Positions 5,693 to 58,888 are shown, numbered from the stretch's first letter. The stretch: 64,000 bases of DNA from an uncultured Gemmatimonadales bacterium (GCA_963851265.1 CAWKNZ010000009.1:96001-160000), one strand, 5' to 3'. Translations and numbers: made by a program. Notes: generated by a model from the letters alone, not told the origin.

Positions 5693-7393
5693 TCAGGATG
5701 TGGTGTTCCGCCGCGGATCGTCGTCGCCTGCCACGTCCACCACGCGCCGGAGCGTGACGGTGAACGTGGAGCCCGTGCCTTCGCGGCTCCGCACGCGCAG
5801 GTCACCGCCCATGCCGCGCGCCAGGTCGCGGCTGATGGCCAGGCCGAGGCCGATCCCCTCGCTCGTGCGTGTGAGCCCCGTGCTGACCTGAACGAACGGT
5901 TCGAACACCGCGTCCTGCTGGTCGCGCGGGATACCCACCCCGGTGTCGCGGACCCGCAGGTACGCCAGCGTCGGGTCTGCTCCAGTGGGTGCCTGCCCGG
6001 CAGGTGTCTCGCCGACGAGTACCTCGCCGGCCGAGGCTTCGGCGCGTCCGGTGAACTCCACGCGCACGACGCCCGGCGTACCGTCGGGCTGCCGGGCCGG
6101 CGTGAACTTGATCGCGTTCGCCAGGAGGTTGAGCAGCACCTGGCCGAGCTTCGCGCGGTCCGCCCACACCGGGCTCACGTCGCGCAGTGCGAAGCCCTCG
6201 TCCGGCGACGGCTCGGCGGCCGGCGCGGCGGGCGCGGCCGGCAGGCGCACCTCGAGCACGAGCCCCTTCGCGTGCGCCTGCGGCTCGACGAGGGGCAGCA
6301 CGTCGCGCACTACGTCGGACACCCGCGTCGGGCGCAGGTCGAAGGTGACGCGTCCTTCCTCGAGCCGTGTGAAGTTGAGCACGTCGGTCACGAGCGCGAG
6401 CAGGCGGGTCTGCGCGCGGCGGATGCGTTCGAGCGGCTCGCGCTGCGCTTCGGCGACCGGGCCGTACAGGCCGTCGGCGAGCAGGGCCACGTAGCCCTGG
6501 ATCGCGTTCAACGGCGTACGCAGCTCGTGCGACATGCTCGCCAGGAAGTCGGCCCGGGCGCTGTTGGCCCGCTCCGCCGCCTCGCGGTGCCGCTCGGCGT
6601 CGCCGCGCTGGCGCTCGGCTTCGTCGGTGCGCTCTTCGAGCGCGGTCGCCTGTGCCTGCAGCTCCTGCGTCAGCACCTCCAGCTCCGTCGCCTGATCCTG
6701 CAGCCGCATCGCCGCGTCCTCCGCCTCGGTGCGCGCGGCGCGTTCGGCCGCCGCATGACGCTCGTTCGCGCGGGCCGCGGCCGCGAGCAGCAGGCCGACG
6801 ACCACCACGCACGACGCGGCCGCGAGCGTTTCGCCGAAGACGACCCACCCCGTCGTCGCGCGCAGCCGGGTCTCCTCCGCCTCGCGCGCGGCGAGCAGTC
6901 GCTGCTCCTCCGAGCCGACGGCGGCGGCCGCGGCCCGGAGCGCGTCCATGCGCGCCTTGCCCGTCGCCAGGAGCGCCGTCGCCTCGGTCCGCTCGCGTGG
7001 GCGGGCGCGCGTGAGGGCGACGGCGGAGTCGAGTTGGGCGACGACGGCACCGGCGCGCGCTTCGAGCGTGTCGAGCCGCAGCTGCTGGGACGGATTGTCC
7101 GCGGTCAGGCGCCGGAGCCGGGCGAGTTCGCGCGCGACATCGCGGTCGGCACGCACGTACGGTTCGAGGAAGCGCGCAACGCCCGTCGCCACGTAGCCCC
7201 GCACGCCGGTCTCGGCGTCCACGGCGCGTCCCCGGGTGGCTTCGAGCGTGGCGAGCACCTCGTACGTGTGCGCCACCCACACCGCCGCGTCGCGGCCGCG
7301 GAGGGTGGTCAGATACGTGAGGAGGCCGAGGAGGAGCACGGTGCCCGCCCCGGCGACGACGGCGACGGCGCGACGCGCAGGCGTGAGGCTCAC
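5693..7393 (-). CDS. Membrane sensor histidine kinase with CHASE3 domain
   Basis: WVAHT.EV...DAETGVRGY...FLEPY...DNPSQ (CHASE3); SHELRTPL H-box; N, G1 and G2 boxes. Confidence 0.92.
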   Translation of the reverse strand: MSLTPARRAVAVVAGAGTVLLLGLLTYLTTLRGRDAAVWVAHTYEVLATLEATRGRAVDAETGVRGYVATGVARFLEPYVRADRDVARELARLRRLTADNPSQQLRLDTLEARAGAVVAQLDSAVALTRARPRERTEATALLATGKARMDALRAAAAAVGSEEQRLLAAREAEETRLRATTGWVVFGETLAAASCVVVVGLLLAAAARANERHAAAERAARTEAEDAAMRLQDQATELEVLTQELQAQATALEERTDEAERQRGDAERHREAAERANSARADFLASMSHELRTPLNAIQGYVALLADGLYGPVAEAQREPLERIRRAQTRLLALVTDVLNFTRLEEGRVTFDLRPTRVSDVVRDVLPLVEPQAHAKGLVLEVRLPAAPAAPAAEPSPDEGFALRDVSPVWADRAKLGQVLLNLLANAIKFTPARQPDGTPGVVRVEFTGRAEASAGEVLVGETPAGQAPTGADPTLAYLRVRDTGVGIPRDQQDAVFEPFVQVSTGLTRTSEGIGLGLAISRDLARGMGGDLRVRSREGTGSTFTVTLRRVVDVAGDDDPRRNTTS

Positions 7394-26818: not shown

Positions 26819-27011
26819 GTTCGGTTACCGAATCGCCCGGATCAGGGTCGCCCATTCGGTAACCGAACGGGCCAGATCACGCGCGGGGCGGCGAGGGGCC
26901 GAGCGGCCGACACGCGGTCTCCGCGCGTTCGGACGCGCTCCGTTTCAGCTCGCGGCAGGCGAACACGCGGCGTTCGGTAACCGAACGACCCAAGCCGTTC
27001 GGTTACCGAAT
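26819..27011. repeat. Four 15-bp palindromes RTTCGGT(T/A)ACCGAAY, putative parS centromere
   Basis: Copies at 26819-26833, 26854-26868, 26972-26986 and 26997-27011, directly upstream of parA. Confidence 0.8.
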
Positions 27012-27171
27012 GGTGACCACCGCCTGCTGCCCAGATCACCCCTGCGATTGCCCCTCGCGTGATTGTCGGCGCGGCGGGCCCGCACTACGTTCGAGTCCCC
27101 GCGGCGTGGTGCGCCCCGTCCGGGGGCCGCGCACGGTGCCGCGCGGCCGTCGTCTCACGCCCTCCCCGGTC

Positions 27172-28014
27172 ATGGCCCTCACAGTCGCGTTCATCGGCGC
27201 CAAGGGCGGCACGCTCAAATCCGCGTGCACCCTCAGCGTCGGCGCCGAGTTCGCCCGGCGCGGGTTTCGCGTCGCGCTCGTCGACTGCGACCCGCAGGCG
27301 ACGACGACCCGCGCCCTCCCCGACGTCGCCGCGGACGGGAGCGAGGCGCCGTTCACCACGGTCGCCGACCCGCTGCACGCGGACCCGGCGGCGGCCACCC
27401 TCGACGCGGTGCGCGCGGCGGGCGGGACGCTGCTCCTCTACCGCAGCGGGGCCTCACTCTGGCGGGCACCGCACGACGCGGTCGTCGCGCACGTGCGCCG
27501 CGCCGCGACGGGGGTCGACGTCGTGCTCGTCGACACGGTGCCCGTGCTCGGCGACATCGCGCTCGCCGTCGCGGCGGCGGCCGACCTGGTCGTCATTCCG
27601 ACCGCGCCAACCGCCGACGACCTCGACGCGGTCGAACACGTGATCGCCGCGGTGCACGAATCGGTCGACCGCGAGAAGCGGATCCGCCTCGTCGTGACCA
27701 AGGCGATCGCGGGACGCCGCAACACGCGCGACGCGCTCGACCTGCTCCGGGACCGCCACCCGGACCTCCTGTACCCGACCGTGATCCCGCACCGCACCAC
27801 CGGCGAGACCGCCAACATGTACCTCCGACCCGCCGTGCTCTACGACGCCGTCGTCGGCGACGGATCGCTGGCCGCGGCCTACGTCGCACTCGCCGATCAC
27901 ATCGCCCACGACCTCGGCCTGCACGCCCCCGCAAGGCCCGCCACGCCGCGCGGCGGCGCCAGGGCCCGGAAGCGGGCCGCGGCCGGCGCACCCACGACGC
28001 GGGGCACGCCGTGA
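27172..28014 (+). CDS. parA: ParA family partition ATPase
   Basis: Deviant Walker A KGGTLKS, A' VALVDCDPQA, Walker B VLVDT, ADLVVIP. Confidence 0.9.
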   Translation: MALTVAFIGAKGGTLKSACTLSVGAEFARRGFRVALVDCDPQATTTRALPDVAADGSEAPFTTVADPLHADPAAATLDAVRAAGGTLLLYRSGASLWRAPHDAVVAHVRRAATGVDVVLVDTVPVLGDIALAVAAAADLVVIPTAPTADDLDAVEHVIAAVHESVDREKRIRLVVTKAIAGRRNTRDALDLLRDRHPDLLYPTVIPHRTTGETANMYLRPAVLYDAVVGDGSLAAAYVALADHIAHDLGLHAPARPATPRGGARARKRAAAGAPTTRGTP

Positions 28015-29305: not shown

Positions 29306-31276
29306 TTACGCCCCCCCGTCCGCCGGCTCGCCATCGTCCGAGCCGCCGAGCATCGGGCGGAGAACGGGCTGATGCCCGTCGCGCGCGCGGCCGATCTGGT
29401 CGATCCGCACACGCGCCGGCAGGTCGCCGGGGCCCGGCTCGGACGCGGCCGACAGTTCGGAGAGCGCCGCCGTGACCGCCGCGCGCACGCGGCGCACCGT
29501 GCTCGGGGCGACGAACAGGTCGGTCCCGAGCACGAGCATGCCGTCGGCGAGCGAGACGGGCACGAGGTGGCCGAGCAGCTGACGCTCGGGCATGCTCGCC
29601 GTCGCCCCCTCGGGCAGCAGGTCGCGGAGCAGCGCCCAGACGGCCACGGCCCGCGCATCGCCGGGCAGCGACGCCGCCAGCTCCGCCGCCGCGGCCGCGC
29701 CCGCGACCTCGGGATCGACGTTGGGTGCGACGACGGTCGGCGGACGGACGGCCGCGTTGCCCGCGGGCGCGCCCACCGCGTCCGACGCGGGCACGAGACG
29801 CGCCGCGGCCCACGTCGCGAACCCGACGTCGCCGGTATTCGGGCGGTTGGCGGCGACGCGGTCGAGCACGAACCCGCGCCAGCTCCGCGTCACCCGCCCG
29901 GGGTCCGTCTCGCGCACGTAGAGCGCGAAGCAGAGCGCGTCGTACGCCGCGTGCGGGCTCGCGGCGAGCAGCGCGCGCGCGCCCGCGTCGTCGAATCCGA
30001 AGTAGTGCAGGAACGCGAGCTGCGCCCGGTCGCTCGTGAGGTCGATGACGCTCGTCCCGCGCAGCAGCGCGGCAAGGGCGAGCGCGGGCCCGGGCTCGAA
30101 GGTGAGCACCCACTCGCCCTTCTTCGGCGAGGTCGCCCCGAGTCCCGCGGCGAGCACCCCAACCCCCACGAGTTCGTCGGCCGCACGCACGAGGTCCCGC
30201 TTGACCTCGTTCGCATACCGGCTCGGCAGCACGCCGCAGGCGGCGCGCAGGGCGCGGAGGTCGAACGCCCACGGCGCCGGGCGCCCGCTCGCCGCCTCAC
30301 CGGCGAGCAGCACGTAGAGCCGCCGCGCGAGCGGCGACGAGAGCGCGCGATACCGGTCGGCCTCGATCCACGCCACCCACCCGGTGACGAGATGCTCGTG
30401 AAAGCGTGCGTTGAGCTTGAGACGCGTGATGCGCAATTCGCCCGTGGCGCTCCGCTCGTAGCTCAGCCGCCACGCGTACTCGAGCAGGTGCGTGACCTCC
30501 TCCTCGATCGCGACCACGCCGTCGCCCGCCGAACGCCCGCGGCCGCTCGCCGCGCGGTCCGGCACGCGCGGACGCGCCCCGGGCTCGCCGCCGACGATCG
30601 CGGCCGCCTCGCCCGACGCGTCGCGGAACACGCGCCCGGTCGACGTGAACTTCAGGTACCCGAAGCGGCGCAGCGCCTGGCGCACGCGCCGGCTCGCGGT
30701 CGCGTTCCGCTCCTTGCGGTCGACGCCCATCGCGGTGAGGATCTCGTTCACCGACACGTCGGCGAGCGCGCCATCCACGAGGCGCGACGGCTTGCCCGCG
30801 AGCACCGCCTGATAATCTTCCGCGTAGAGCGCGAGCACCGCGAGGAATACGTCGAGGTCGCGCCCGCGCGGCATCCCGAGCCGGCTGTGCCCTTCGACGC
30901 GGATGGTCACCGTGCGGCCGAAGCGCTCGATGAGTTCGTACTTCGCCTGCCACGCCTCGACCGGCAGGACGGGCAGCCGTTCGAGGAAGTCGGCGTCCCG
31001 CTCGTCCGTCTCGGCCTCGGGCGGATCGTCGTCCTCGCCCTTCGACCGCCCGGGCAGGGCTGGCGCGCGCAGCGACGCGAGCACGAACGGCACCTGCGCC
31101 AGGTCGAGCGGAGCCGGCACGTTGGGCACGACCGCGCCCCCGGTGCGCTGCAGCAGCGCGACGTCGGGGATGCCGCTCGCGGCCGAATTCGTGGGGGTGG
31201 CGCCCGTCACCGGCGGCCGTGCGACGCGACGCGGCGCGCGTGACCGGGGATGGGGCGAATCGGCGGCCGACGACAT
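29306..31276 (-). CDS. Putative plasmid/chromid replication initiator (wHTH Rep) with DnaA-N-like C-terminus
   Basis: L...PF, G.P...D.DV.LA.L and L.SPLARRLY.LL motifs seen in plasmid initiators; lies between parAB and an iteron-bearing region. Family not confirmed by search. Confidence 0.7.
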   Translation of the reverse strand: MSSAADSPHPRSRAPRRVARPPVTGATPTNSAASGIPDVALLQRTGGAVVPNVPAPLDLAQVPFVLASLRAPALPGRSKGEDDDPPEAETDERDADFLERLPVLPVEAWQAKYELIERFGRTVTIRVEGHSRLGMPRGRDLDVFLAVLALYAEDYQAVLAGKPSRLVDGALADVSVNEILTAMGVDRKERNATASRRVRQALRRFGYLKFTSTGRVFRDASGEAAAIVGGEPGARPRVPDRAASGRGRSAGDGVVAIEEEVTHLLEYAWRLSYERSATGELRITRLKLNARFHEHLVTGWVAWIEADRYRALSSPLARRLYVLLAGEAASGRPAPWAFDLRALRAACGVLPSRYANEVKRDLVRAADELVGVGVLAAGLGATSPKKGEWVLTFEPGPALALAALLRGTSVIDLTSDRAQLAFLHYFGFDDAGARALLAASPHAAYDALCFALYVRETDPGRVTRSWRGFVLDRVAANRPNTGDVGFATWAAARLVPASDAVGAPAGNAAVRPPTVVAPNVDPEVAGAAAAAELAASLPGDARAVAVWALLRDLLPEGATASMPERQLLGHLVPVSLADGMLVLGTDLFVAPSTVRRVRAAVTAALSELSAASEPGPGDLPARVRIDQIGRARDGHQPVLRPMLGGSDDGEPADGGA

Positions 31277-31495
31277 GGGCGACGAGCGGAGGGCAGAAAC
31301 GGTGCAGGGCACGCTAGCCGGACGCTCTGCACCAGGCAACGCGCCGGGTTGGAGGGAGTTGTCGTTCTGAAAAAGACAACAGACCTACCTACGCATGGGC
31401 GATCCGCACTCTGCGTCGCGGACCGTAAGTCGTGCGTTGAGGGGCGATTGCGCGCGAGTCGAGCACTCCGACCCCGTCACGGCACCCACGTCCGG

Positions 31496-31882
31496 TCCGT
31501 GTCAGCGCCCGTACCCCGCGCGGTTCACCGACCGGATACACGCTGCGACGCATGAAGTCCGTGTCAGATCCCGTACGCCACCATACCCAGCGCCCGTGGT
31601 GGAGTACCCCGGGCGCGCTGGCGTGCATCCGTCCAATGCAGCCCTAGAACCCCCGATACGGGAACTGACACGGAGTAAACGCCGCCCGACACACGGCTGT
31701 GCTCCCGAGCGCTGGGGCAGTGCCGGTCCACTGGCCAGGCACTGCGGATTGACGAGCCCGGGTACTGTCTCCCATACTCCCGGTATGGGCGTTGACACGG
31801 AGTTCTGCCGCGGCTCGCTCGCGTGACCACGCGTCGCATGGTCCGGGCGACGACGCGCGCTCCATCCGTGCGATGACACGGA
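31496..31882. repeat. Iteron-like 19-bp repeats TCCGTGTCAnnnCCCRTAY, putative replication origin
   Basis: Plus-strand copies at 31496-31514 and 31558-31576; minus-strand copies at 31656-31674 and 31783-31801; partial copy at 31864-31882; lower-GC intergenic region upstream of rep. Confidence 0.75.
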
Positions 31883-32919
31883 GATCGCGCGTTCCGAATC
31901 GCGCCGTCGCGTCGAGCCTCTCCGCGGCGAGTGCTTCGGCAGCCCAGGATGCGCCTGCTTCGAGCGGCAGCACGCGCGGCGGCGCGAACGACGTGCGGTG
32001 GCTCCGCCCCGCGTCCGCGCCGCCCCGCGTCGTCGACCTCCGGGCCGTCGCGCGGCGCCTCGACGATCTGGGTCCGCTCGACGCGGGTGCGTGGCGCGCC
32101 GCGCAGCTCGTCGCGCTGCTGGTCGGGGCGGAGCTGGACGGCGGACCCGGCGCGGCCACGGCGGGATGGGAGGGCGGCACGACCGTGCGGGTGGCCGATC
32201 TCGCGTCACGCGCCGGCGTCGTTCCGGCCGAGGTCGAGGACGCGCTTCGCAGGCTCGGCCGCGCCGGCGTGCTCCGCGCGGAGGAGGGCGGGGAAGTGGG
32301 ACCGGCGTCGGACGACTATGCCGGGGTGTGCGTGCGCGTCGCGGCCGACTGCGTCACGGACGGCCCCGCTGCCGCCGTCGCGTGGCCCACCGTGACGGCG
32401 GCGCTCGCCGGCTCGGCGGCCGGGCTCCTCGTGGCGCGTGCGCTCGCCGCCGCGACCGACCGGCCCGGGCATCCGACCGTCGTGCCCTACGGCGATCTCG
32501 CCCGCGCGACGCACTACTCCGAAGGGATGGTGAAGCGCGGAGTGGCGACGGTGCTCGCGTCGGGCGCGGTCGTTCAGCACCCGTGCCGCGGGCGCGCGCC
32601 GGCGTACGCGTTCTCGGACTGGGCGCTCGGGCGTGGTACCGCGCGCGCGGCGGTGGACGTGCCGGCCGAGGTGGCGCGCGTCGCGCCTCCCTCGACCGCT
32701 CCGCGCCAGGCGGGTGCGCTGCCACCTGTCGCTCCGCAGCCCGTGCCCTCCCGCCGCACGGCGTCTGCGTTCGCAGCCCTTCCGCCGGTCCTGCGGGCGC
32801 GCGTCGCCGGCGTCGACTTCGAGGTGCCGGCCGAGACGGGGGCGGAGGTGGTCGTCGAGACCGTGATCGACGGGCGCCCGGTCACCGCACGGCTGACGAT
32901 CCCGGCGGCCCGCGGCTGA
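31873..32919 (+). CDS. Hypothetical protein with two predicted winged-HTH motifs
   Basis: VADLASRAGV...EVEDALRRLGRAGVL and YGDLARATHYSEGMVKRGVATVLASGAV; start uncertain. Confidence 0.6.
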   Translation: MTRRSRVPNRAVASSLSAASASAAQDAPASSGSTRGGANDVRWLRPASAPPRVVDLRAVARRLDDLGPLDAGAWRAAQLVALLVGAELDGGPGAATAGWEGGTTVRVADLASRAGVVPAEVEDALRRLGRAGVLRAEEGGEVGPASDDYAGVCVRVAADCVTDGPAAAVAWPTVTAALAGSAAGLLVARALAAATDRPGHPTVVPYGDLARATHYSEGMVKRGVATVLASGAVVQHPCRGRAPAYAFSDWALGRGTARAAVDVPAEVARVAPPSTAPRQAGALPPVAPQPVPSRRTASAFAALPPVLRARVAGVDFEVPAETGAEVVVETVIDGRPVTARLTIPAARG

Positions 32920-50638: not shown

Positions 50639-51380
50639 CGCCAGGAGACGCACGCGGAGGCCTCGCCCGGATCGCTGATCGCCTCGACGTCGCGGAGCGG
50701 CAAGCACGCACGTCACCGAATCGTGAGCGCGTCGGCCTCGGGGGTTTCGGCCAAGGTAGGTCCCGGCATCGGCATCCGCGAGCAGGAAGGCATCGCGCGG
50801 CGTCAGGACGGGATCGGAAGGACCCGACGTCGGTGCAACGACGGTGGCGCGGGACGGCGGTGCCCGACCGAACGACGAGACGCGCGCGACCGGCAACCAC
50901 GTCGCGATCCCGCTCGACCCGGGTCATGTGCACCCGCGAGTCGCGTTGCGCCGGGGGTCGGTCCAGCGTCAACCGCGCGGTGCGACGCGGACCCCTGCGT
51001 CCTGACGCGCCGCCACACCGCGTTCAAGTCGGCACCCGCCGCGCCGAGACTCCGGAACGCGCGGACCCTTCGCACGGCCGCGCATCGTGCGCTGCCCGCG
51101 ACGCCTGCGTGCGACCCCCTCGTTCGCTCCTCCGACGCGGTGGGGCCAGCATGCCACGTCCCGGCTGCACCGGGACGCGGTGTGCCGGCCCCGCAATTGG
51201 GGGGATCACCGCCATCCGCGCGAGCGCGATGAATCTCCGTCTGGTGCAGCACCACGATCCCACGCCGACCGCGCACGTCGCACCGCCCGCTCCGCGGTCG
51301 GCGGTTCTACCGACGTCGGCGCGCCGAGTGGACGCAACGCGGGCTCGCGCGTGACGCGGTCGACGGAGGGTGACCGCCCG

Positions 51381-53447
51381 ATGCCTCGCGCGGTCGGCTT
51401 CGTGGGGCGCGTTGCGCGACGCGGCCTCGCCCACGTGCGGCAGGGATTCGGGCAGCCCGCGATGGGACCGACGCGAGCCGAGCAGGCGTTCGAGGACCTA
51501 CACCTGGCGCGCGAGGAAGCCGAGAGCACGGCCGCTCGCCTCCGCACGGTCGCGGACGTGGCCGGCGGCGTCATCCGGGCCGACTCCTTGCCCGCCCTGC
51601 ACGCGGTGCTCCGCGACGTCTGCGGTCAGCTGTTCACGTTCGACCGCTTCGCGGTGGTCGCGGGTGAGCCGGTCGGCCCACCCGGCACCCCCGTGCCATT
51701 GCGCGCCCTCGGGGACTCCGATCCGTCCCTGGCCGCTGTCGTCGTCGGCGGGATCACGGTCGCCGGGTGCGGGACCGCGCGGCCCGACTCGTTCTCGACG
51801 AGCGCGTCGTCGGTTCTTGCGGCATCGGACTGCTCGACCCTCGTCAGACCCGTGCTCGGCGACGACGCGGTGCTCGGCTATATCGCCCTGGGCGCCGACC
51901 GACCCGACGCCTTCCGAGTGAGCGACGGCGAGGTGCTCGAAGCGCTTGCCGCGCTGGCGGCCACCGCGATTCGCAACTTGGTGCTCGTCGGCGAGCTGCG
52001 GTACTCGCGCGAGGCGTACGCGCACCAGGCGCTGCACGATCCGCTGACCGGACTTCCCAACCGTGCCGGGCTGCACGAGCACCTCGCGCGGGTGCTGGGC
52101 GGCCCGCACCCGGAGCGCGTGAGCGTGCTCGTCCTCGACCTCGACGGCTTCAAGCGCGTCAACGATTCGTTAGGCCACCCGCAGGGCGACAGCCTGCTGG
52201 TGCAGGTCGCGGAGCGCCTGCTCGACGCCACGCGCGGCAGCGACACGGTCGCGCGACTCGGCGGCGACGAGTTTGCCGTGCTGCTCGAGAACACCCGTGC
52301 GCCGGACGACGCCGTCGCGGTCGCCGAGCGCGTCCTCGGGGCGCTCCGCGCGCCATTCGACCTCGGCGGCGCCGAGGCCATGGTCGGCACGAGCGTGGGT
52401 ATCGCGTTCAGCGGCGCCGCCGAGGCGGACCTTCTGGGCGACGCGACGGCTCTGGGCGACGCCCTGCTGCGCGACGCGGACCTCGCCATGTACCGCGCGA
52501 AAGAATCGGGCAAGGGGCGATACGTAGTCTACGAGCCTCACATGCACGCGGAGGCGGTCAGTCGCCTCGAGCGCGAGGCCGATTTACGCGCGGCGATCGA
52601 GAAGCGCGAATTCCGCCTGTATTACCAGCCGATCGTAGCGCTCGAGACTGGGGCGGCGCTCGGCGTGGAAGCGCTGGTCCGCTGGGAGCACCCGCTTCGT
52701 GGCCTCGTCCCGCCTGCCGAGTTCATCCCGCTCGCCGAGGAGACCGGACTCATCGTGCCGCTCGGCCGTTGGGTCCTGGGCGAGGCGTGCCGCCAGGCGC
52801 GCGTGTGGGCCGACCACGCGTGGGGGACCGACCTCACCGTGACCGTGAACGTGTCGGGCATCCAGCTCTACGACGCCGCGTTCGTCGAGGACGTCCGCCT
52901 GGCACTCGCGGCGAGCGGCGTCACGCCGCAGCGGCTCGTCCTCGAGCTGACCGAAACGGTCATGGTCGACCGACCCGGGCTCGCGCTCGAGCGGTTCAAC
53001 GCACTCAAGGCGCTTGGCGTGCGGCTGGCCATCGACGACTTCGGCACGGGCTATTCGGCACTCAGCTATCTGCGCCAGTTTCCGTTCGACGTCCTCAAGA
53101 TCGACAAGAGCTTCGTGGACGAGGTTGCCACCCGCGGGCAGGCCGCGACGCTCGCGGCGGCGATCGTCGCGCTCGGCAACGCATTCGCCCTGCGCACGGT
53201 GGCGGAGGGCGTCGAGTCGGCCGACCAGGCCACGGCACTCGGCGAGATCGGCTGCGCGATCGCGCAAGGGTACCATTTCAGCCGACCGCTCGCGGCGGAG
53301 GCGGTGACGGCCTGGCTCGCGGCCGAGCGGGTCGCCCCCGCGCCCGACCCACTCGGCGGGGTCACCGAAACGAGGTGGGCGCGGGAGCCCGCGGGCGGGC
53401 GGGCGGCGCCGCTGCGCACCGTGGCGACGCGCGGCGAGCTGCCGTAA
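51381..53447 (+). CDS. GAF-GGDEF-EAL c-di-GMP cyclase/phosphodiesterase
   Basis: HDPLTGLPNR, RGSD I-site, GGDEF, EAL, DDFGTGYS, AEGVE and QGY all intact; start uncertain. Confidence 0.93.
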   Translation: MPRAVGFVGRVARRGLAHVRQGFGQPAMGPTRAEQAFEDLHLAREEAESTAARLRTVADVAGGVIRADSLPALHAVLRDVCGQLFTFDRFAVVAGEPVGPPGTPVPLRALGDSDPSLAAVVVGGITVAGCGTARPDSFSTSASSVLAASDCSTLVRPVLGDDAVLGYIALGADRPDAFRVSDGEVLEALAALAATAIRNLVLVGELRYSREAYAHQALHDPLTGLPNRAGLHEHLARVLGGPHPERVSVLVLDLDGFKRVNDSLGHPQGDSLLVQVAERLLDATRGSDTVARLGGDEFAVLLENTRAPDDAVAVAERVLGALRAPFDLGGAEAMVGTSVGIAFSGAAEADLLGDATALGDALLRDADLAMYRAKESGKGRYVVYEPHMHAEAVSRLEREADLRAAIEKREFRLYYQPIVALETGAALGVEALVRWEHPLRGLVPPAEFIPLAEETGLIVPLGRWVLGEACRQARVWADHAWGTDLTVTVNVSGIQLYDAAFVEDVRLALAASGVTPQRLVLELTETVMVDRPGLALERFNALKALGVRLAIDDFGTGYSALSYLRQFPFDVLKIDKSFVDEVATRGQAATLAAAIVALGNAFALRTVAEGVESADQATALGEIGCAIAQGYHFSRPLAAEAVTAWLAAERVAPAPDPLGGVTETRWAREPAGGRAAPLRTVATRGELP

Positions 53448-53490: not shown

Positions 53491-54975
53491 CTACGCCGAG
53501 TCGGCGCGGCTGCGATCGCGCCCCGTGGGGAAGCGGCGGTCGAGCTCCCCCTTGCCGGTCCGCACCCACGCATCACGCGTCACGCGGACGATCCGCAACG
53601 GGCGCGCGGCGAGTGGGCCTAACAAATCCGGGAGGTCGCCGGCCTCCGGCACCGGCTCCACCTCGCCGGCAGTCGACAGGGCCAGCACCAGCGTCCGCCC
53701 GTCGGGCGACGACAGCAGGACGTCGGTGAGCTGCGGCCAGCGCGCACGCACCGCGCGCTCGACGGAAGCGGCGGGCACGAACCGGCCGTTCTCCAGCTTG
53801 AAGCTGTCTGCCGTGCGCCCCTCGAACGTGTAGGTGCCGTCGAACTCCCGCCTCGCGAGGTCGCCGGTGCGCACCCAGCGCCCGGGTGGCTCGACGCTGA
53901 TCCCGAGACCTCCGGCCGCGTCGGCCTCCCACACGCCGAGGCAGGCGTTCGCGCCGCGAAACGCGAGCACGTCGTCGGCGTCGAGGCGGACCTCACAGCC
54001 GACTGGGTGACCGAGCGCGCCCGCGTGCCACGCTCCCGGATCACCCATCGTGATGCCCGGCGAGGCTTCGGTCTGACCGTACCCCACGCGCAGTCGCGTG
54101 CCGCGGAGCAGATCGGCGAGTGTCGAGTCGACCGGCGCCCCACCGATCACCCCGCCGCGCAGCCGGCCTAACAGCGCGCGGCCCTCGTCGCGTTCGGCGA
54201 GCAGGCGCAAGGTGTACGGCACGGCGTGCAGGTGCGTGATCGGATGCTCGGCCGCCACGGCCAGCATGGCCGCGGCGTCGCGCCCCCCCGAGGGGTCGCG
54301 CAACAGCTCGGCGCCGGCCAGCAGCGCGGGGAGCAACTCGAGCACCAGGCCGAACGCGTGATGCCACGGCAGCACCGAGAGGACCACGGCCCCATCCATG
54401 GCCAGCAGCGGGGTGTGGCTTGCCAACACCGCTCGCACGTTGGCGTCGGAGAGCGCCACGCGCCGCGGGGCCCCAGTCGTACCACTGGTCTCGAGGAGGA
54501 ATCGCGCCTCGCGGGTCGGCCCCGAGCGTGCCGGGCGCGGGATCACGGCAACGTCGGGCGGCGTGCCCGCGCGCTCCGCGGCGACGATCGCGGCAGCCGC
54601 CGGGCGGCCTGGTGCGACCACGGCATAGCGCGCATCGACGAGGTCGAGCAGGGACGCGACGTCGGCGCTGGCCGGCGCGGGCACGAACGTCAGATCGTCC
54701 CAGAGGGCCGCGACGAGCAGCATCGCGAAGCCCGGGCCGGGCGGCAGTGCACACACGACGCGGTCGCCCGGGCCGACGCCGTGCGTCCGCCACCACGCCG
54801 TCCACCGGCGCGCACCGGCCCACAGCGAGGCGGCGGCCACGAGGTCGTCACGCGTCCACAGCAGCGGGAGCGGACGGCCGCGGAGCCGGCGGTAGAGCGC
54901 GTCGCGCCACGACGACTCCGGCGCGGCACGCTCCGGCGCGAAATCCGTGACCGCAGCATCAGGTCGCACGTCCAT
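53491..54975 (-). CDS. pcl: AMP-dependent acyl-CoA ligase, probable p-coumaroyl-CoA ligase for PYP
   Basis: TSGTTG, LPWHH.FG, GYGQTE, RTGD and terminal GK; substrate inferred from position next to pyp and tal. Confidence 0.8.
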   Translation of the reverse strand: MDVRPDAAVTDFAPERAAPESSWRDALYRRLRGRPLPLLWTRDDLVAAASLWAGARRWTAWWRTHGVGPGDRVVCALPPGPGFAMLLVAALWDDLTFVPAPASADVASLLDLVDARYAVVAPGRPAAAAIVAAERAGTPPDVAVIPRPARSGPTREARFLLETSGTTGAPRRVALSDANVRAVLASHTPLLAMDGAVVLSVLPWHHAFGLVLELLPALLAGAELLRDPSGGRDAAAMLAVAAEHPITHLHAVPYTLRLLAERDEGRALLGRLRGGVIGGAPVDSTLADLLRGTRLRVGYGQTEASPGITMGDPGAWHAGALGHPVGCEVRLDADDVLAFRGANACLGVWEADAAGGLGISVEPPGRWVRTGDLARREFDGTYTFEGRTADSFKLENGRFVPAASVERAVRARWPQLTDVLLSSPDGRTLVLALSTAGEVEPVPEAGDLPDLLGPLAARPLRIVRVTRDAWVRTGKGELDRRFPTGRDRSRADSA

Positions 54976-55080
54976 GCCGCGAACGTTACAACCTTAGACC
55001 GGCCGGTCCGACAGTCCGAAGCGAAGGCGCGGCGACGGGCCGAATCGGCCGCGGTCCACCCCCCGCCCCTGTTCGTCGTG

Positions 55081-55416
55081 ATGTCATCCCTCGATGCCCC
55101 TCGGCCTGCACCCGCGAGCGCCGGCGCTCCCGACGCCCTGCACGAGATGGTCGCGAGCCTCGAGGCGCAACTCGTCTCGCTCTACGCAGAGCGCGAAGCC
55201 GAGGTCGCCGAGGCCGACACTCTGCGCGCCGCCGTCGCCAGCCTCGAAGAGCAGGCGCGCGCGTGGTACGCGAGCGTCGAGCGCCTCGGCGGTCGCACCG
55301 TCGACGAGGCCGCCGACGCGCTCGTGAGTTACGAGGCCCAGCTCGATGCGCTCTACGCCGCGGTCGACGCGACCCCCGGCGACGGCGGCAGCGCTCCCGC
55401 TTCGACGCCCGCCTGA
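55081..55416 (+). CDS. Hypothetical 111-aa protein with three S[LY]ExQxxxxY helical repeats
   Basis: VASLEAQLVSLY, VASLEEQARAWY and LVSYEAQLDALY; first gene of the pyp operon. Confidence 0.7.
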   Translation: MSSLDAPRPAPASAGAPDALHEMVASLEAQLVSLYAEREAEVAEADTLRAAVASLEEQARAWYASVERLGGRTVDEAADALVSYEAQLDALYAAVDATPGDGGSAPASTPA

Positions 55417-55459
55417 ACCGCACTGCGTTCACACCACCTCCACCATCCCGACTTCACCC

Positions 55460-55828
55460 ATGTCCTTCGTTCCTCAGGCCGTCATCGACGGCCTCGCCGA
55501 GTTCTCGCGCTCCCAGGCCGACGCCCAGCCGTTCGGTGTCGTCCGCGTCACCGACGAGGGCATCGTCACGCTCTACAACCGCTGGGAATCCGGCCTCGCG
55601 GGCGTCGCCATCGAGACCGCCGAGGGCCGCAACTTCTTCACGCAGATCGCGCCGTGCACCAACAACCGCCTCGTGTTCGGCCGGTTCAAGGACGGCGTGC
55701 AGAAGAAGCAGCTCGACTCGGAGTTCAACTACACGTTCACGTACAAGATGAAGCCGACCAACGTCGCGCTTCGTCTCTTCCGGCACGAGCCTACGGCGAC
55801 GAACTGGGTGTTCGTCGGGCTGCGCTGA
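55460..55828 (+). CDS. pyp: Photoactive yellow protein (122 aa)
   Basis: PFG, YNxxE (Tyr42/Glu46 equivalents), GRNFFxxIAPCT (Cys69 equivalent), YTFTYKM.PT.V and WVFV. Confidence 0.95.
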   Translation: MSFVPQAVIDGLAEFSRSQADAQPFGVVRVTDEGIVTLYNRWESGLAGVAIETAEGRNFFTQIAPCTNNRLVFGRFKDGVQKKQLDSEFNYTFTYKMKPTNVALRLFRHEPTATNWVFVGLR

Positions 55829-55850
55829 GCCGCCGCGGAAGAGCCCGGCC

Positions 55851-56306
55851 ATGATCGCCGAACACCTCAGCGTCGCCGCGAACGTCGACCGGCTCGAAGC
55901 GCTCCTCGAGACGACGTGCAACGGGGTGCCCGCCGGCCCGGCCCGTGAGGCGCTCCTCGCGTATGCGCGGCAGAAGCGGGATGGGATGGTGGCGCTCGCC
56001 GCCGCGCTCCACGCGGCGGACGACGAGCCCGAACTCGTCCGCCTGCTCGCCGCGGTGTGGTTGGAGCTGCGCTGCGAGTGGGAGCGGTACAACAACGTGT
56101 CGAACTATCAGCTCTTTCATTCGGGGCACGACGCCGAGCCCCAGGTCATGGCGGCGGCCGCCACGATGTCGGGCATGCTCACGTGGATCGAGGAGGTCGT
56201 TCCCGGGCCGGCCGTCGAACTCATGACCGTCGCGACGCTCGACATGCTCGACCGCATTCGCGCGGACGTGGTGGAGCGCGCGTTGACGGCCGGCACCGCG
56301 GCCTGA
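55851..56306 (+). CDS. Hypothetical helical protein in the pyp operon
   Basis: Clean ORF between pyp and the MCP; WLELRCEWERYN segment; family not recognised. Confidence 0.7.
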   Translation: MIAEHLSVAANVDRLEALLETTCNGVPAGPAREALLAYARQKRDGMVALAAALHAADDEPELVRLLAAVWLELRCEWERYNNVSNYQLFHSGHDAEPQVMAAAATMSGMLTWIEEVVPGPAVELMTVATLDMLDRIRADVVERALTAGTAA

Positions 56307-56318
56307 CCAGGCGCCTTC

Positions 56319-57212
56319 GTGGTAGACACCGTCAGCTACACGCCGCGCTTTGCCTGGGCGATGGTGGCCGCACCGGCCGCCACGGGGAGCGCCGTCGTCG
56401 CAACCAACGGGCCCGTAACCGGCGGGCCCGCGCAGGCGGGGCCGCCGAACGGCGCGGCGCTCGCGGAACTCGCGGCCGGGCTCGAGCGGAGCCGCGAGCG
56501 CGTGGAGACGCTGACCAACAGCGCGACCACGGTACTCTGCCTCACCTCGGTCGTGCACACGCAGCTCGCGGACGTGGGCGCGCGCGCGGCCGACGTGAGC
56601 GGCGCGGCCGCGCGCGTGGCCGAGCAGAGCCGCGCTACGGCCACCGCGGCCGCGGAGATTCGCGCCCTGGTCGATGACGCGCGCGCGGCGGTTGCGGCGC
56701 TGGCCGGTCACGCGCGCGACATCGAGCACGTGAGCACGCGCTTGAACGTGCTCGCCGTCGAGGCGCGCTTCGTCGGACTCAACGCGGCCATCGAGGCGGC
56801 GCGCGCCGGCGACGCGGGCCGAACCTTCGCGGTGGTGGCCGACAAGGTCCGCGAACTCGCCGACGGGGCATCCGACGCCGCGACGCAGATCATCGGCCGC
56901 CTCGGGCGCATCCGCGACGACGCGCTGCAGTCCGCGGCCGTGATGGAGCGCGCCGGCGTGTCGGTCGGCGCGATCGACGCGTTCACCGCCGGCGTGGCCG
57001 ACGCCGCGGCGGCGCAGGAGGCGGGCACCGCCGAGATCACGAGCAGCCTAACGCAGGTGTCGGGCGCGGTCGACGAGATCGTCCGTGCGGTAGAGGACAT
57101 CACCGAAGTCGGCATGGTGCTCGGAGACGGGACCGCCGAGAATCTCGCGCTCGCCGGCGCACTCGGCGCCGGCGCGGCGGCTTCCGATCCCGCGCCAGCG
57201 AGCGACTCGTGA
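56319..57212 (+). CDS. Soluble methyl-accepting chemotaxis signalling-domain protein
   Basis: LNAAIEAARAGDAGRTFAVVADKVRELA hairpin; no TM helix or sensor domain. Confidence 0.88.
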   Translation: MVDTVSYTPRFAWAMVAAPAATGSAVVATNGPVTGGPAQAGPPNGAALAELAAGLERSRERVETLTNSATTVLCLTSVVHTQLADVGARAADVSGAAARVAEQSRATATAAAEIRALVDDARAAVAALAGHARDIEHVSTRLNVLAVEARFVGLNAAIEAARAGDAGRTFAVVADKVRELADGASDAATQIIGRLGRIRDDALQSAAVMERAGVSVGAIDAFTAGVADAAAAQEAGTAEITSSLTQVSGAVDEIVRAVEDITEVGMVLGDGTAENLALAGALGAGAAASDPAPASDS

Positions 57213-58888
57213 CCGCATCGCTCCGCGACGTCCCGCGGGCGATCGCGCCCGGTGGCGAGGGAGACGCGGGCACGACGACGGTGGACCTGGGCGGACACGT
57301 CACGCCGGCCGACATCTACGCCGTCGCCGTCCGCGGGGCGCCGCCGCGAATCGGGCCCGACGCGCGGGCTCGGATGGAGGCGTCGGCGGAATACCTGGCA
57401 CGGTGCGTCGACGAGCGGCGGCTGGTGTACGGCGTCACGACCGGCTACGGCCCGCTCGCGCGGCACCATGTCGGGCCGGAGCACGCCGCGACGCTCCAGC
57501 AGAACCTCATCTATCACCTCGCTTCGGGCGTCGGCGCGCCGCTCTCGCCGGCGCACACGCGTGCGCTGATGGCGGCGCGCGTCGCGAGCCTGGCCCGCGG
57601 CTACTCCGGCGTTGGGCGCGCGACCGCCGACCTGCTGCTCGCGTGCCTCACGCGCGGCGTCACGCCCGTTGTCCCCGAGCGGGGCACGGTGGGGGCGAGT
57701 GGTGACCTGACGCCGCTCGCCCACGTGGCGCTCGTGCTCATCGGCGAGGGGCGGGCCGCGTACCGCGGCGGCGTCCTGCCGGGGGCCGACGCGCTTCGGC
57801 TGGCGGGGCTCGCGCCGGTGGCGCTCGGGCACAAGGAGGGGCTCGCGTTGGTGAACGGCACGTCGGCGATGACGGGGATCGCCGCCGTGAACGCCGAGCG
57901 TGCGCGCCGGCTCGCGGAGCTGGTCGCGCGCCTCGCGGTGCTGCACGCCGAGGTTCTGGGGGGGCACGTCGAAGCATGGGACGCGCGCTTCGGGCGCGCG
58001 CGGCCGCACCCCGGGCAACGCGCGGCGCACGCGCGACTGCTGCGACTCGCGCGCGGGAGCGGCCGCCTAACGCCGTCGGTGCAGCCGCCGCCGCGGCTCG
58101 ACGCGCGGAGCGAGGCGACCGGACTGTTCAGCGCGCCCGAGCCGCCGCAGGACCCGTACACGATCCGGTGCGTTCCGCAGGAGCTCGGCGCCGCTCTCGA
58201 CGTGCTCGCCTTCCACGCCGGCGTGGTGGGAACGGAGCTCAACAGCGCCACCGACAATCCGCTCGTCTTCGCCGACGGCGCGGACGACCCGGATGGCGCG
58301 GTGTTGCACGGCGGCAACTTCTACGGCCAGCACGTCGCGTTCGCGAGCGACGCGCTCGCGATGGCGGTGGTCAAGCTCGCGGCCTGGAGTGAGCGGGCGC
58401 TCGCGCGGCTCACCAATCCGGCCTACAACAAGGGGTTGCCGGCGTTTCTGCACGGCGGAGCGCCGGGGCTGACGAGCGGTTTGATGGGAGCGCAGGTCAC
58501 GGCGACGGCACTCGTCGCGGAGATGCGCACCGGTGCGGTCCCTGCGTCGATCCAGACGATCCCGACGAACAACGACAATCAGGACGTCGTCACGATGGGT
58601 ACGATCGCCGCTCGCAAGGCGAGCGGGCTGCTCGACCTCGCGTGGCACGTGCTGGCGATCCACGCGATCGCCGCCGCGCAGGCGTCGGAGTGCCGGGCGC
58701 GCGAGGGCGGCGCGCGGGCGCCCGGCGACGCGGGCTTCTCCTCCGCGAGTGCCGCGCTCTGGTCGGCGGTACGCGGCGCGGTCGCACCGCTCGACACGGA
58801 CCGCCCCCTGTCCGACGACATCATGCGCCTCGCCGAGGCGCTGGAGCACGACGACGCGCTGCTCGGTGCGAGCCCACTCCTGACGTAG
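57209..58888 (+). CDS. tal: Aromatic amino acid ammonia-lyase, probable tyrosine ammonia-lyase
   Basis: YGVTTG.G, GTVGASGDL (MIO), LVNGT, QDPY..RC, DNP and HGGNF; selectivity segment NLIYHLASGVG is TAL-like; co-operonic with pyp. Confidence 0.88.
   Translation: MTASLRDVPRAIAPGGEGDAGTTTVDLGGHVTPADIYAVAVRGAPPRIGPDARARMEASAEYLARCVDERRLVYGVTTGYGPLARHHVGPEHAATLQQNLIYHLASGVGAPLSPAHTRALMAARVASLARGYSGVGRATADLLLACLTRGVTPVVPERGTVGASGDLTPLAHVALVLIGEGRAAYRGGVLPGADALRLAGLAPVALGHKEGLALVNGTSAMTGIAAVNAERARRLAELVARLAVLHAEVLGGHVEAWDARFGRARPHPGQRAAHARLLRLARGSGRLTPSVQPPPRLDARSEATGLFSAPEPPQDPYTIRCVPQELGAALDVLAFHAGVVGTELNSATDNPLVFADGADDPDGAVLHGGNFYGQHVAFASDALAMAVVKLAAWSERALARLTNPAYNKGLPAFLHGGAPGLTSGLMGAQVTATALVAEMRTGAVPASIQTIPTNNDNQDVVTMGTIAARKASGLLDLAWHVLAIHAIAAAQASECRAREGGARAPGDAGFSSASAALWSAVRGAVAPLDTDRPLSDDIMRLAEALEHDDALLGASPLLT

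Follow-up and report, generated by a model that had tools for sequence, protein, structure and literature searches.

A cluster of six genes on a 64,000-nucleotide (nt) stretch of DNA from an uncultured Gemmatimonadales bacterium (GCA_963851265.1, CAWKNZ010000009.1:96001-160000), hereafter the window, encodes a photoactive yellow protein (PYP) next to two unnamed proteins (orfX and orfY), a soluble chemoreceptor of the MCP type, and two enzymes presumed to supply the PYP chromophore. The cluster is probably a complete blue-light input module, with the orfY domain relaying the PYP signal to a chemosensory array. Two observations carry this reading: orfX and orfY represent genuine families, as yet unnamed, that go with this clade of PYPs, and orfY domains occur fused to parts of CheA, CheW, and MCPs. 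The window corresponds to C9:96001-160000 of the source genome (G000), which comprises 4.6 Mb in 12 contigs with 73–74% GC on each; contig C9 is 205 kb long. Throughout, G001 denotes the sister genome, L numbers denote PYP loci, and P numbers denote cluster representatives of the orfY family. The genes of the cluster are as follows.

53491..54975, minus strand: acyl-CoA ligase, presumed pCL, transcribed divergently; matches PF00501 at 4e-32
55081..55416, plus strand: orfX, 111 amino acids (aa), starting at the ATG at 55081; coiled-coil protein with a repeated motif
55460..55828, plus strand: pyp, 122 aa, clade B type; matches TIGR02373 and PYP/Ppr chains in the PDB
55851..56306, plus strand: orfY, 151 aa; six-helix domain model, unnamed family
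56319..57212, plus strand: MCP, short and soluble, 297 aa; PF00015 at residues 104–261
57209..58888, plus strand: aromatic amino-acid ammonia-lyase, presumed tyrosine ammonia-lyase (TAL); matches PF00221 at 2e-158 (528 bits)

All positions of this six-gene layout, as given by the original prediction, were confirmed. The ligase is divergent, while orfX, pyp, orfY, the MCP gene, and the lyase gene lie on the same strand with no gap above 43 nt (orfX–pyp, 43 nt; pyp–orfY, 22 nt; orfY–MCP, 12 nt), and the stop codon of the MCP gene and the GTG start of the lyase share a GTGA overlap. The third-position GC content is 0.85 in orfX and 0.89–0.94 in pyp, orfY, and the MCP and lyase genes (window GC 72–77%). 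More than chance lies behind the arrangement, since in most related loci pyp is likewise flanked by orfX and orfY homologues. A scan of the locus for promoters and terminators yielded nothing useful. Among the public sequencing runs, no RNA run is listed, and just a single run, from a soil metagenome, contains the words, at a share of 0.15.

In the proposed mechanism, TAL would make p-coumarate from tyrosine and pCL would activate it for attachment to Cys66 of the clade B PYP, as family membership and gene context suggest. The six-helix orfY would sense the light-activated PYP, probably with the help of the coiled-coil orfX, and the orfY domain would pass the signal to the signaling hairpin of the adjacent sensor-less soluble MCP. 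The latter would join CheA and CheW from contig C3 of the same genome, biasing motility. Binding of PYP to orfY, the direction of signaling, and the motility output are what we infer. The original prediction had free PYP signaling through one or both orphan proteins to the MCP; this idea is partly supported, in that comparative genomics places the orphans in the PYP pathway and connects it with chemosensory proteins. The idea of a PYP–MCP pair is not new.

The association of orfX and orfY with PYP was examined in relatives found by a scan of one genome per species, from which the best 80 of 97 loci were kept. These loci come from Gemmatimonadota, Myxococcota, Burkholderiales, Planctomycetota, Bdellovibrionota, Spirochaetota, and other groups. 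Local profiles of orfX and orfY, iterated on the six-frame open reading frames (ORFs) of the 80 loci, matched 63 and 88 ORFs, respectively. Within 6 kb of pyp, orfY is found in 66 of the 80 loci, orfX in 62, both in 55, and either in 73; beyond 6 kb, there are no matches to either profile in the 80 loci. In 55 of the loci, the available sequence extends 3 kb or more to either side of pyp; of these, 43 have orfX within 3 kb, 43 have orfY, and 49 have at least one of the two. The six loci of these 55 that have neither orphan harbor the most distant PYPs, at 39–50% identity. Proximity is tighter still at short range: 63 of the 88 orfY ORFs and 59 of the 63 orfX ORFs are within 1 kb of pyp, a zone that makes up 14.6% of the DNA. 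Nearly all are encoded on the pyp strand (60/61 orfX ORFs and 77/83 orfY ORFs).

As a control, the orfX and orfY profiles each match only the window's own gene in the 4.6-Mb G000. Among 401 Gemmatimonadota genomes, which are kin and not independent of one another, orfY is present in five. These same five, and no others, give a PYP profile score of 187 bits or higher, and in them the PYP and orfY matches are 57–803 nt apart. In a further 22 of the 401 genomes, the PYP paralogues are weaker, not exceeding 113 bits, and orfY is absent. In 251 genomes from the phylum of a further genome, G420, orfY and a high-scoring PYP occur only in G420 itself, a result that is consistent with the association and adds no new positive.

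The chemosensory link is afforded by the longer members of the orfY family. A CheW-like domain is present in 11 of the 44 long members scanned, in 10 of them above the cut-off. In P0098, P0107, and P0161, orfY is followed by CheA dimerization and/or ATPase domains together with CheW, that is, by P3–P5 cores. P0098 matches an E. coli-type CheA model over positions 281–656 of 670 (E 8e-54); orfY thus occupies the place of P1 and P2 of CheA. Three proteins, from contigs as long as 803 kb, make up the P0107 cluster, and a source gives two of these proteins the name CheA. A different architecture is seen in eight Bdellovibrionota loci, where a protein of ~700 aa encoded directly upstream of pyp has Hpt-like and ATPase-like regions, by local profiles, and a C-terminal orfY domain; Pfam confirms Hpt and HATPase_c in the two of these proteins that were scanned (L080, of the Oligoflexus MAGs, and L086). 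The Bdellovibrionota PYPs of the eight CheA-orfY loci form one group on a quick PYP tree, which is built on few columns and weakly supported.

In Gemmatimonadales and Burkholderiales, the usual gene order is orfX-pyp-orfY-HDOD-long orfY protein. In Sphaerotilus natans (L032), where the order is orfX-pyp-orfY-HDOD-orfY::CheW-pCL, the long orfY protein has a CheW-like C-terminal domain (33.8 bits). In L049, the genes for PYP, orfX, orfY-CheW, TAL, pCL, CheA, MCP, and a double CheW are consecutive on one strand. Overall, local profiles for MCP, CheW, and the CheA ATPase find at least one such chemosensory part within 6 kb in 40 of the 80 loci, all 40 of which have orfX or orfY. When the orfY-CheA core of P0107 was compared pairwise with the long orfY proteins of S. 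natans and of a Gemmatimonadaceae metagenome-assembled genome (MAG), only the orfY part or a weak CheW part aligned.

A frequent fourth member of the module is an HDOD-HD protein (L025:10892-11917, L032:10880-11923, L059:10934-12295, and others), encoded within 6 kb of pyp in 21 of the 80 loci. Its gene usually lies between the small orfY gene and the gene for the long orfY protein or MCP; the window cluster has no such gene. In a Bradymonadia MAG (L059:5223-8607), orfX-orfY-pyp-HDOD adjoins an MCP-PilZ fusion and a gene related to cryptochromes and photolyases, and this locus thus pairs PYP with a second light sensor and a reader of cyclic di-GMP. A full-text literature search returned no paper on PYP together with HDOD among the 15 matches listed; the PDF supplement of Xing et al. 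and the supplements of Dohmen et al. lay outside this search and may bear on novelty.

orfY matches no Pfam or NCBIfam family. Its model is all-helical, with six helices and a pLDDT of 94.8. A Foldseek search with the model found no solved relative at E 0.001 or better, VIA-align returned only generic helical bundles (best Z 8.9), and the ESM Atlas gave no usable match. Trp77 and Asn81 are invariant in 21 sequences. An exhaustive profile search (1.84 billion entries) recovered 387 cluster representatives at E 0.001, 303 of them at 1e-10, and a word-indexed homologue search recovered 13 proteins. Family members are mostly ~135–160 aa long, many are ~470–540 aa, and some are tandem; the stand-alone form is the commonest. 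Tandem proteins with two or three orfY domains include P0014 (463 aa), P0015, and P0016, and in L026, L027, L029, and L035 two small orfY genes follow pyp in a row. The possibility that orfY is a degenerate CheA P1/Hpt domain was rejected, as hhalign assigns a probability of 0.12% against four Hpt domains.

orfX likewise matches no Pfam or NCBIfam family. It harbors a motif near SLEAQLxxLYxERE that is repeated about every 28 residues, with three copies in the window protein and up to ten in other loci. The model has helices at residues 16–68 and 74–97, with a pLDDT of 80 and a pTM of 0.40; the low pTM would be as expected for a coiled coil. Only unnamed coiled-coil-like clusters were found for orfX in the ESM Atlas.

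The MCP contains PF00015 (65.2 bits against a cut-off of 34.6) as its sole Pfam family. Its maximum 19-residue Kyte-Doolittle hydropathy is 1.40, and it has no membrane segment. The protein thus has the signaling domain and no hydrophobic segment, in line with the sensor-less, cytoplasmic MCP of the original prediction. It ranks second weakest among the 10 MCP matches in G000. A direct connection to orfY is seen in P0031 (454 aa), in which orfY is followed by MCPsignal. The MCP part of P0031 is 53% identical to the window MCP over 206 aa, and the two have an unusual tip in common: the window protein keeps the LNAAIEAARAG core, while the preceding residues are unlike those of six other MCPs of G000 and like those of P0031. 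The separate genes are also found together elsewhere. L025, L039, and L104 have the order orfX-pyp-orfY-HDOD-MCP, with TAL next in L025 and L039, and in L040, L041, and L062 orfY is followed by MCP. Mapping the MCP label onto the quick PYP tree takes six changes, so MCPs seem to have been recruited to the module more than once, though that tree is weakly supported.

The junction of the two genes in the window recalls the P0031 fusion. The TGA stop of orfY (56304–56306) is in frame with the MCP start, and a read-through product would be 453 residues long, one fewer than the 454 of P0031. L062 likewise has an in-frame TGA at this junction (7148–7153), followed there by 3 nt rather than the 12 nt of the window. 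The in-frame TGA could be due to chance (1 in 9 for two loci), to recent gene fission, or to stop-codon read-through giving two forms. A more drastic explanation, in which orfY and the MCP are the halves of a P0031-like fusion broken by a nonsense mutation and the module is decaying, is highly improbable even with the agreement in length. Both halves keep a third-position GC of 0.91–0.93, the stand-alone form is the commonest in the orfY family, and twelve close orfY homologues (66–73% identical) stand alone at 149–157 aa with a common end point. Because these twelve homologues end alike, faulty assembly does not account for the separation of the orfY and MCP genes.

Several points weigh against a route from PYP through orfY into the chemosensory array. 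The P0031 fusion is a singleton on one 2.3-kb contig and hence a single observation, and it could itself be an error or a product of read-through. In Gemmatimonadales and Burkholderiales, no match was obtained for the central region of the long orfY proteins. Entry of the window MCP into a CheA/CheW array is uncertain because its tip departs from the canonical motif. By the local profile, any MCP at all lies within 6 kb of pyp in 8 of the 80 loci only. In the sister genome G001, which keeps pyp-orfY, there is neither an orfX nor an MCP of the window subtype (best 25% identity), and no TAL was found. Lastly, L107 and L108, whose PYPs and MCPs are 65–67% and 57–59% identical to those of the window, have the layout pCL | pyp-MCP-TAL with neither orfX nor orfY; the link to the MCP is therefore not always dependent on the orphans.

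The last two loci suit an alternative in which the sensor-less MCP receives its signal straight from PYP, a scheme put forward for Leptospira by analogy with CetB/CetA; orfX and orfY would then be accessory modulators. L107 and L108 keep the same MCP subtype beside pyp without the orphans, direct PYP–MCP contact is proposed in the accessible text of Xing et al. 2022 (PMC9664959), and MCP-PYP fusions exist according to that of Dohmen et al. 2025 (PMC12826048). This alternative is nevertheless unlikely. Beside pyp, the orphans are much steadier companions than any MCP, being present in 73 of the 80 loci, against 8 that have an MCP within 6 kb by local profile. That orfY domains occur joined to CheA cores and, once, to an MCP also suits a relay domain better than a bystander. 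Signaling through orfY is accordingly preferred here over direct contact.

Solved PYP and Ppr chains align with the window PYP at E-values between 2e-22 and 1e-19, and the Cys that carries the chromophore, the Tyr, and the Glu all fall in register. Cys66 aligns with the cysteine of the solved PYPs and is invariant in an alignment of 21 relatives, and Tyr39 and Glu43 are kept here and in 18 of the 21. We take these residues to be Cys69, Tyr42, and Glu46 in the numbering of the Halorhodospira halophila protein. At the positions that, in the same assumed numbering, are Thr50 and Arg52, the window PYP has Ala and Val, as do most of the 21 relatives. Both features that define the family in Xing et al. 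2022 are present, namely a PAS fold with the chromophore Cys and at least one of Tyr42 and Glu46. Against TIGR02373, the protein scores 98 bits, below the equivalog cut-off of 143.05. Its close kin are the PYPs of Gemmatimonas phototrophica and S. natans, which are assigned to clade B in the accessible parts of Xing et al. 2022 (PMC9664959), and these clade B PYPs are likewise marked "< cutoff" in Data Set S3 of the same work. The missed cut-off therefore reflects the model more than the protein.

Two further PYP-like domains, at 37–38% identity, are encoded in G000. One, at C3:181349-181660 (L015:7247-9472), is the N-terminus of a 741-aa PAS-GGDEF-EAL protein, and the other, at C7:481365-481703 (L014:6988-7767), belongs to a 259-aa protein; in a genome-wide profile search, neither was adjoined by orfX or orfY. 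Planctomycetota PYPs in L083 (10001–10363), L084 (1729–2091), and L092 (6180–6542) keep the Cys, while Tyr is replaced by Val and Glu by Gln. PYPs that retain Cys with both the Tyr and Glu positions changed were never found, according to the accessible text of Xing et al. 2022 (PMC9664959).

Chromophore supply would be local. The nearest solved chain to the lyase is 2o6y (410 bits; the next scores 291), which we take to be the Rhodobacter tyrosine ammonia-lyase. The translation shows the Ala-Ser-Gly (ASG) triad and a His-Leu pair at what is presumably the selectivity switch position. No NCBIfam lyase model is matched at its cut-off. The ligase is a divergent AMP-binding enzyme encoded beside pyp; among the best 25 of 62 NCBIfam matches, none is to a dedicated pCL model and none reaches its cut-off, all being far below. 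It is presumed to act as pCL, judged from its context. Of the 80 loci, 36 encode a pCL homologue and 42 a TAL homologue at no more than 6 kb from pyp. Homology and conserved context thus support the predicted self-supplying chromophore module of PYP, TAL, and pCL. G001 (L013, C1:1650000-1668000) keeps the GGDEF-EAL, pCL, pyp, and orfY genes, and no ammonia-lyase was found in this genome (97% completeness) with the window TAL as query. Since none was found with this query, G001 may take p-coumarate from outside. The gene after orfY in L013 is DUF1810-like, as named by eye.

The company of these enzymes raises the question of whether orfX and orfY serve the maturation or stability of holo-PYP, through chromophore loading or chaperoning, rather than signaling. 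The orphans sit with pCL and TAL in many loci, such as L054 (orfY-orfX-pyp-pCL-TAL), and by local counts L063, L065, L066, and L092 have orfX, orfY, pCL, and TAL and no che gene. Such a role is very unlikely, as it gives no reason for the fusion of orfY to parts of CheA, CheW, and MCPs, and PYPs of the H. halophila type mature with pCL and TAL alone, according to the accessible text of Dohmen et al. 2025 (PMC12826048).

The gene that adjoins the ligase on its far side could provide a second output.

51087..53447, plus strand: GAF-GGDEF-EAL protein, 786 aa by the first start codon; EAL 3.5e-74, GGDEF 1.5e-38, weak GAF

This protein is a neighbor of the module. It is quite unlikely that cyclic di-GMP turnover by this protein is the main output, with the MCP secondary or unrelated, since no more than 3 of the 80 loci have a GGDEF-EAL homologue inside the 6-kb range and the window gene is located beyond the divergent pCL and has its own GAF input. 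Several observations nonetheless fit such an output. The gene also stands beside pCL in G001, at 69% identity, a PYP-like PAS domain precedes the corresponding GGDEF-EAL gene in L107 and L108, and contig C3 of G000 encodes the PYP-PAS-GGDEF-EAL protein described above; links between PYP and GGDEF are already published.

For the favored route from PYP through orfY into the chemosensory array, the remaining components were expected outside the window, and they were found on contig C3 of G000. This contig encodes a full CheA, CheB, CheR, response regulators, FliS, and FliD. CheW-domain matches number four in G000, two of them in the che/flagellar stretch of C3. A flagellar response is plausible because the che genes lie beside flagellar genes.

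The original prediction had also suggested that the module lies on a secondary replicon, which is not supported. The idea is likely to have rested on a ParA-like ATPase gene (27010–28014) and a 677-aa ORF (29306–31339) with a weak match to replication initiator protein A (RPA; 36.8 bits, no single stretch passing), which lie 24–28 kb upstream of the module and have homologues at 34–36% identity on two G001 contigs. A genome-wide RPA search of G000 gave a match only on C1, which also carries DnaA, the ends of contig C9 do not overlap, and the orthologous locus of G001 lies 1.66 Mb into a 1.94-Mb contig. The module does look mobile, as it is rare and patchy in the phylum and the Burkholderiales PYPs nest among those of Gemmatimonadales on the weak tree.

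A division of labor between a separate PAS sensor and an adjacent signaling-only chemoreceptor is also described for CetB and CetA of Campylobacter jejuni. CetB binds FAD and CetA is membrane-anchored; in contrast, the window module has no membrane-anchored transducer. To our knowledge, CetA/CetB have no third or fourth partner like orfX or orfY. Among PYP-family proteins, Ppr is a PYP-phytochrome-kinase fusion, in which we know of no orfY-like domain. The Ppr of Rhodocista centenaria is reported to be linked to the chemotaxis pathway (PMC2993699).

Clade B PYPs often adjoin chemoreceptors that lack sensory domains, an arrangement likened to CetA/CetB in the accessible parts of Xing et al. 2022 (PMC9664959). 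The window locus conforms to this description in its single-domain PYP with Tyr, Glu, and Cys kept, its sensor-less MCP, and the nearby TAL and pCL. It differs in that the chemoreceptors described for Leptospira have transmembrane regions, whereas the window MCP is soluble and short. The same authors enter the flanking proteins of unassigned type simply as "None" or "hypothetical", and for the flanks of the G. phototrophica and S. natans pyp genes their neighborhood table gives "None", HDOD, and CheW (Xing et al. 2022, PMC9664959). Beyond that account, the flanking proteins here constitute two conserved families, one of which is fused to parts of CheA, CheW, and MCPs. The orphan families appear new, while the pairing of PYP with a sensor-less chemoreceptor has already been published.

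A precedent for a PYP partner is the PBP of Rhodobacter capsulatus, a 142-aa protein encoded beside pyp that forms a complex with light-activated Rc-PYP (Kim et al. 2021, 10.1101/2021.06.01.446672). For single-domain PYPs, no other candidate partner is known to have been reported. orfY is similarly small (151 aa) and encoded 22 nt after pyp. PBP is predicted to have N-terminal helices followed by β-sheets, whereas the orfY model is all-helical. Moreover, Rc-PYP belongs to clade A and the window PYP to clade B, and the accessible text of Kim et al. states no link between PBP and chemotaxis. The MCP-PYP fusions of Dohmen et al. 2025 (PMC12826048) imply phototaxis via CheA and CheY, and pyp operons are also reported there; the words HDOD, CheW, and hypothetical do not occur in the accessible text. 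In those fusions PYP is located at the MCP C-terminus, whereas here PYP is free, and in relatives the domain joined to MCP or CheA is orfY.

Although PYP serves as a textbook example of a photoreceptor, both Xing et al. 2022 (PMC9664959) and Dohmen et al. 2025 (PMC12826048) describe the chain that transmits its signal as still unknown. The locus adds two conserved unnamed partner families, one with CheA, CheW, and MCP fusions in several phyla, and makes the question of the PYP partner concrete: holo-PYP and orfY, with or without light. It is tentatively proposed, at somewhat less than an even chance, that orfY is a dedicated receiver for single-domain clade B PYPs, a six-helix domain that would dock the light-activated PYP and couple it to chemosensory arrays, whether it acts as a separate adaptor or as part of an MCP or CheA fusion, and that orfX is a multivalent coiled-coil scaffold with repeated docking motifs. 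If so, orfY would be the first general downstream partner for PYP, whose signaling chain has been open since its discovery. The module is carried by cultured organisms, namely S. natans ATCC 13338 (L032) and, according to Xing et al. (Data Set S3), G. phototrophica. A light-switchable pair of PYP and its partner would be of interest for optogenetics.

Elsewhere in the window, ARAGORN places a tRNA-Trp at 31832–31913, inside an ORF (31792–32919) that was called from third-position GC and has no Pfam family. One of these two calls is probably wrong.

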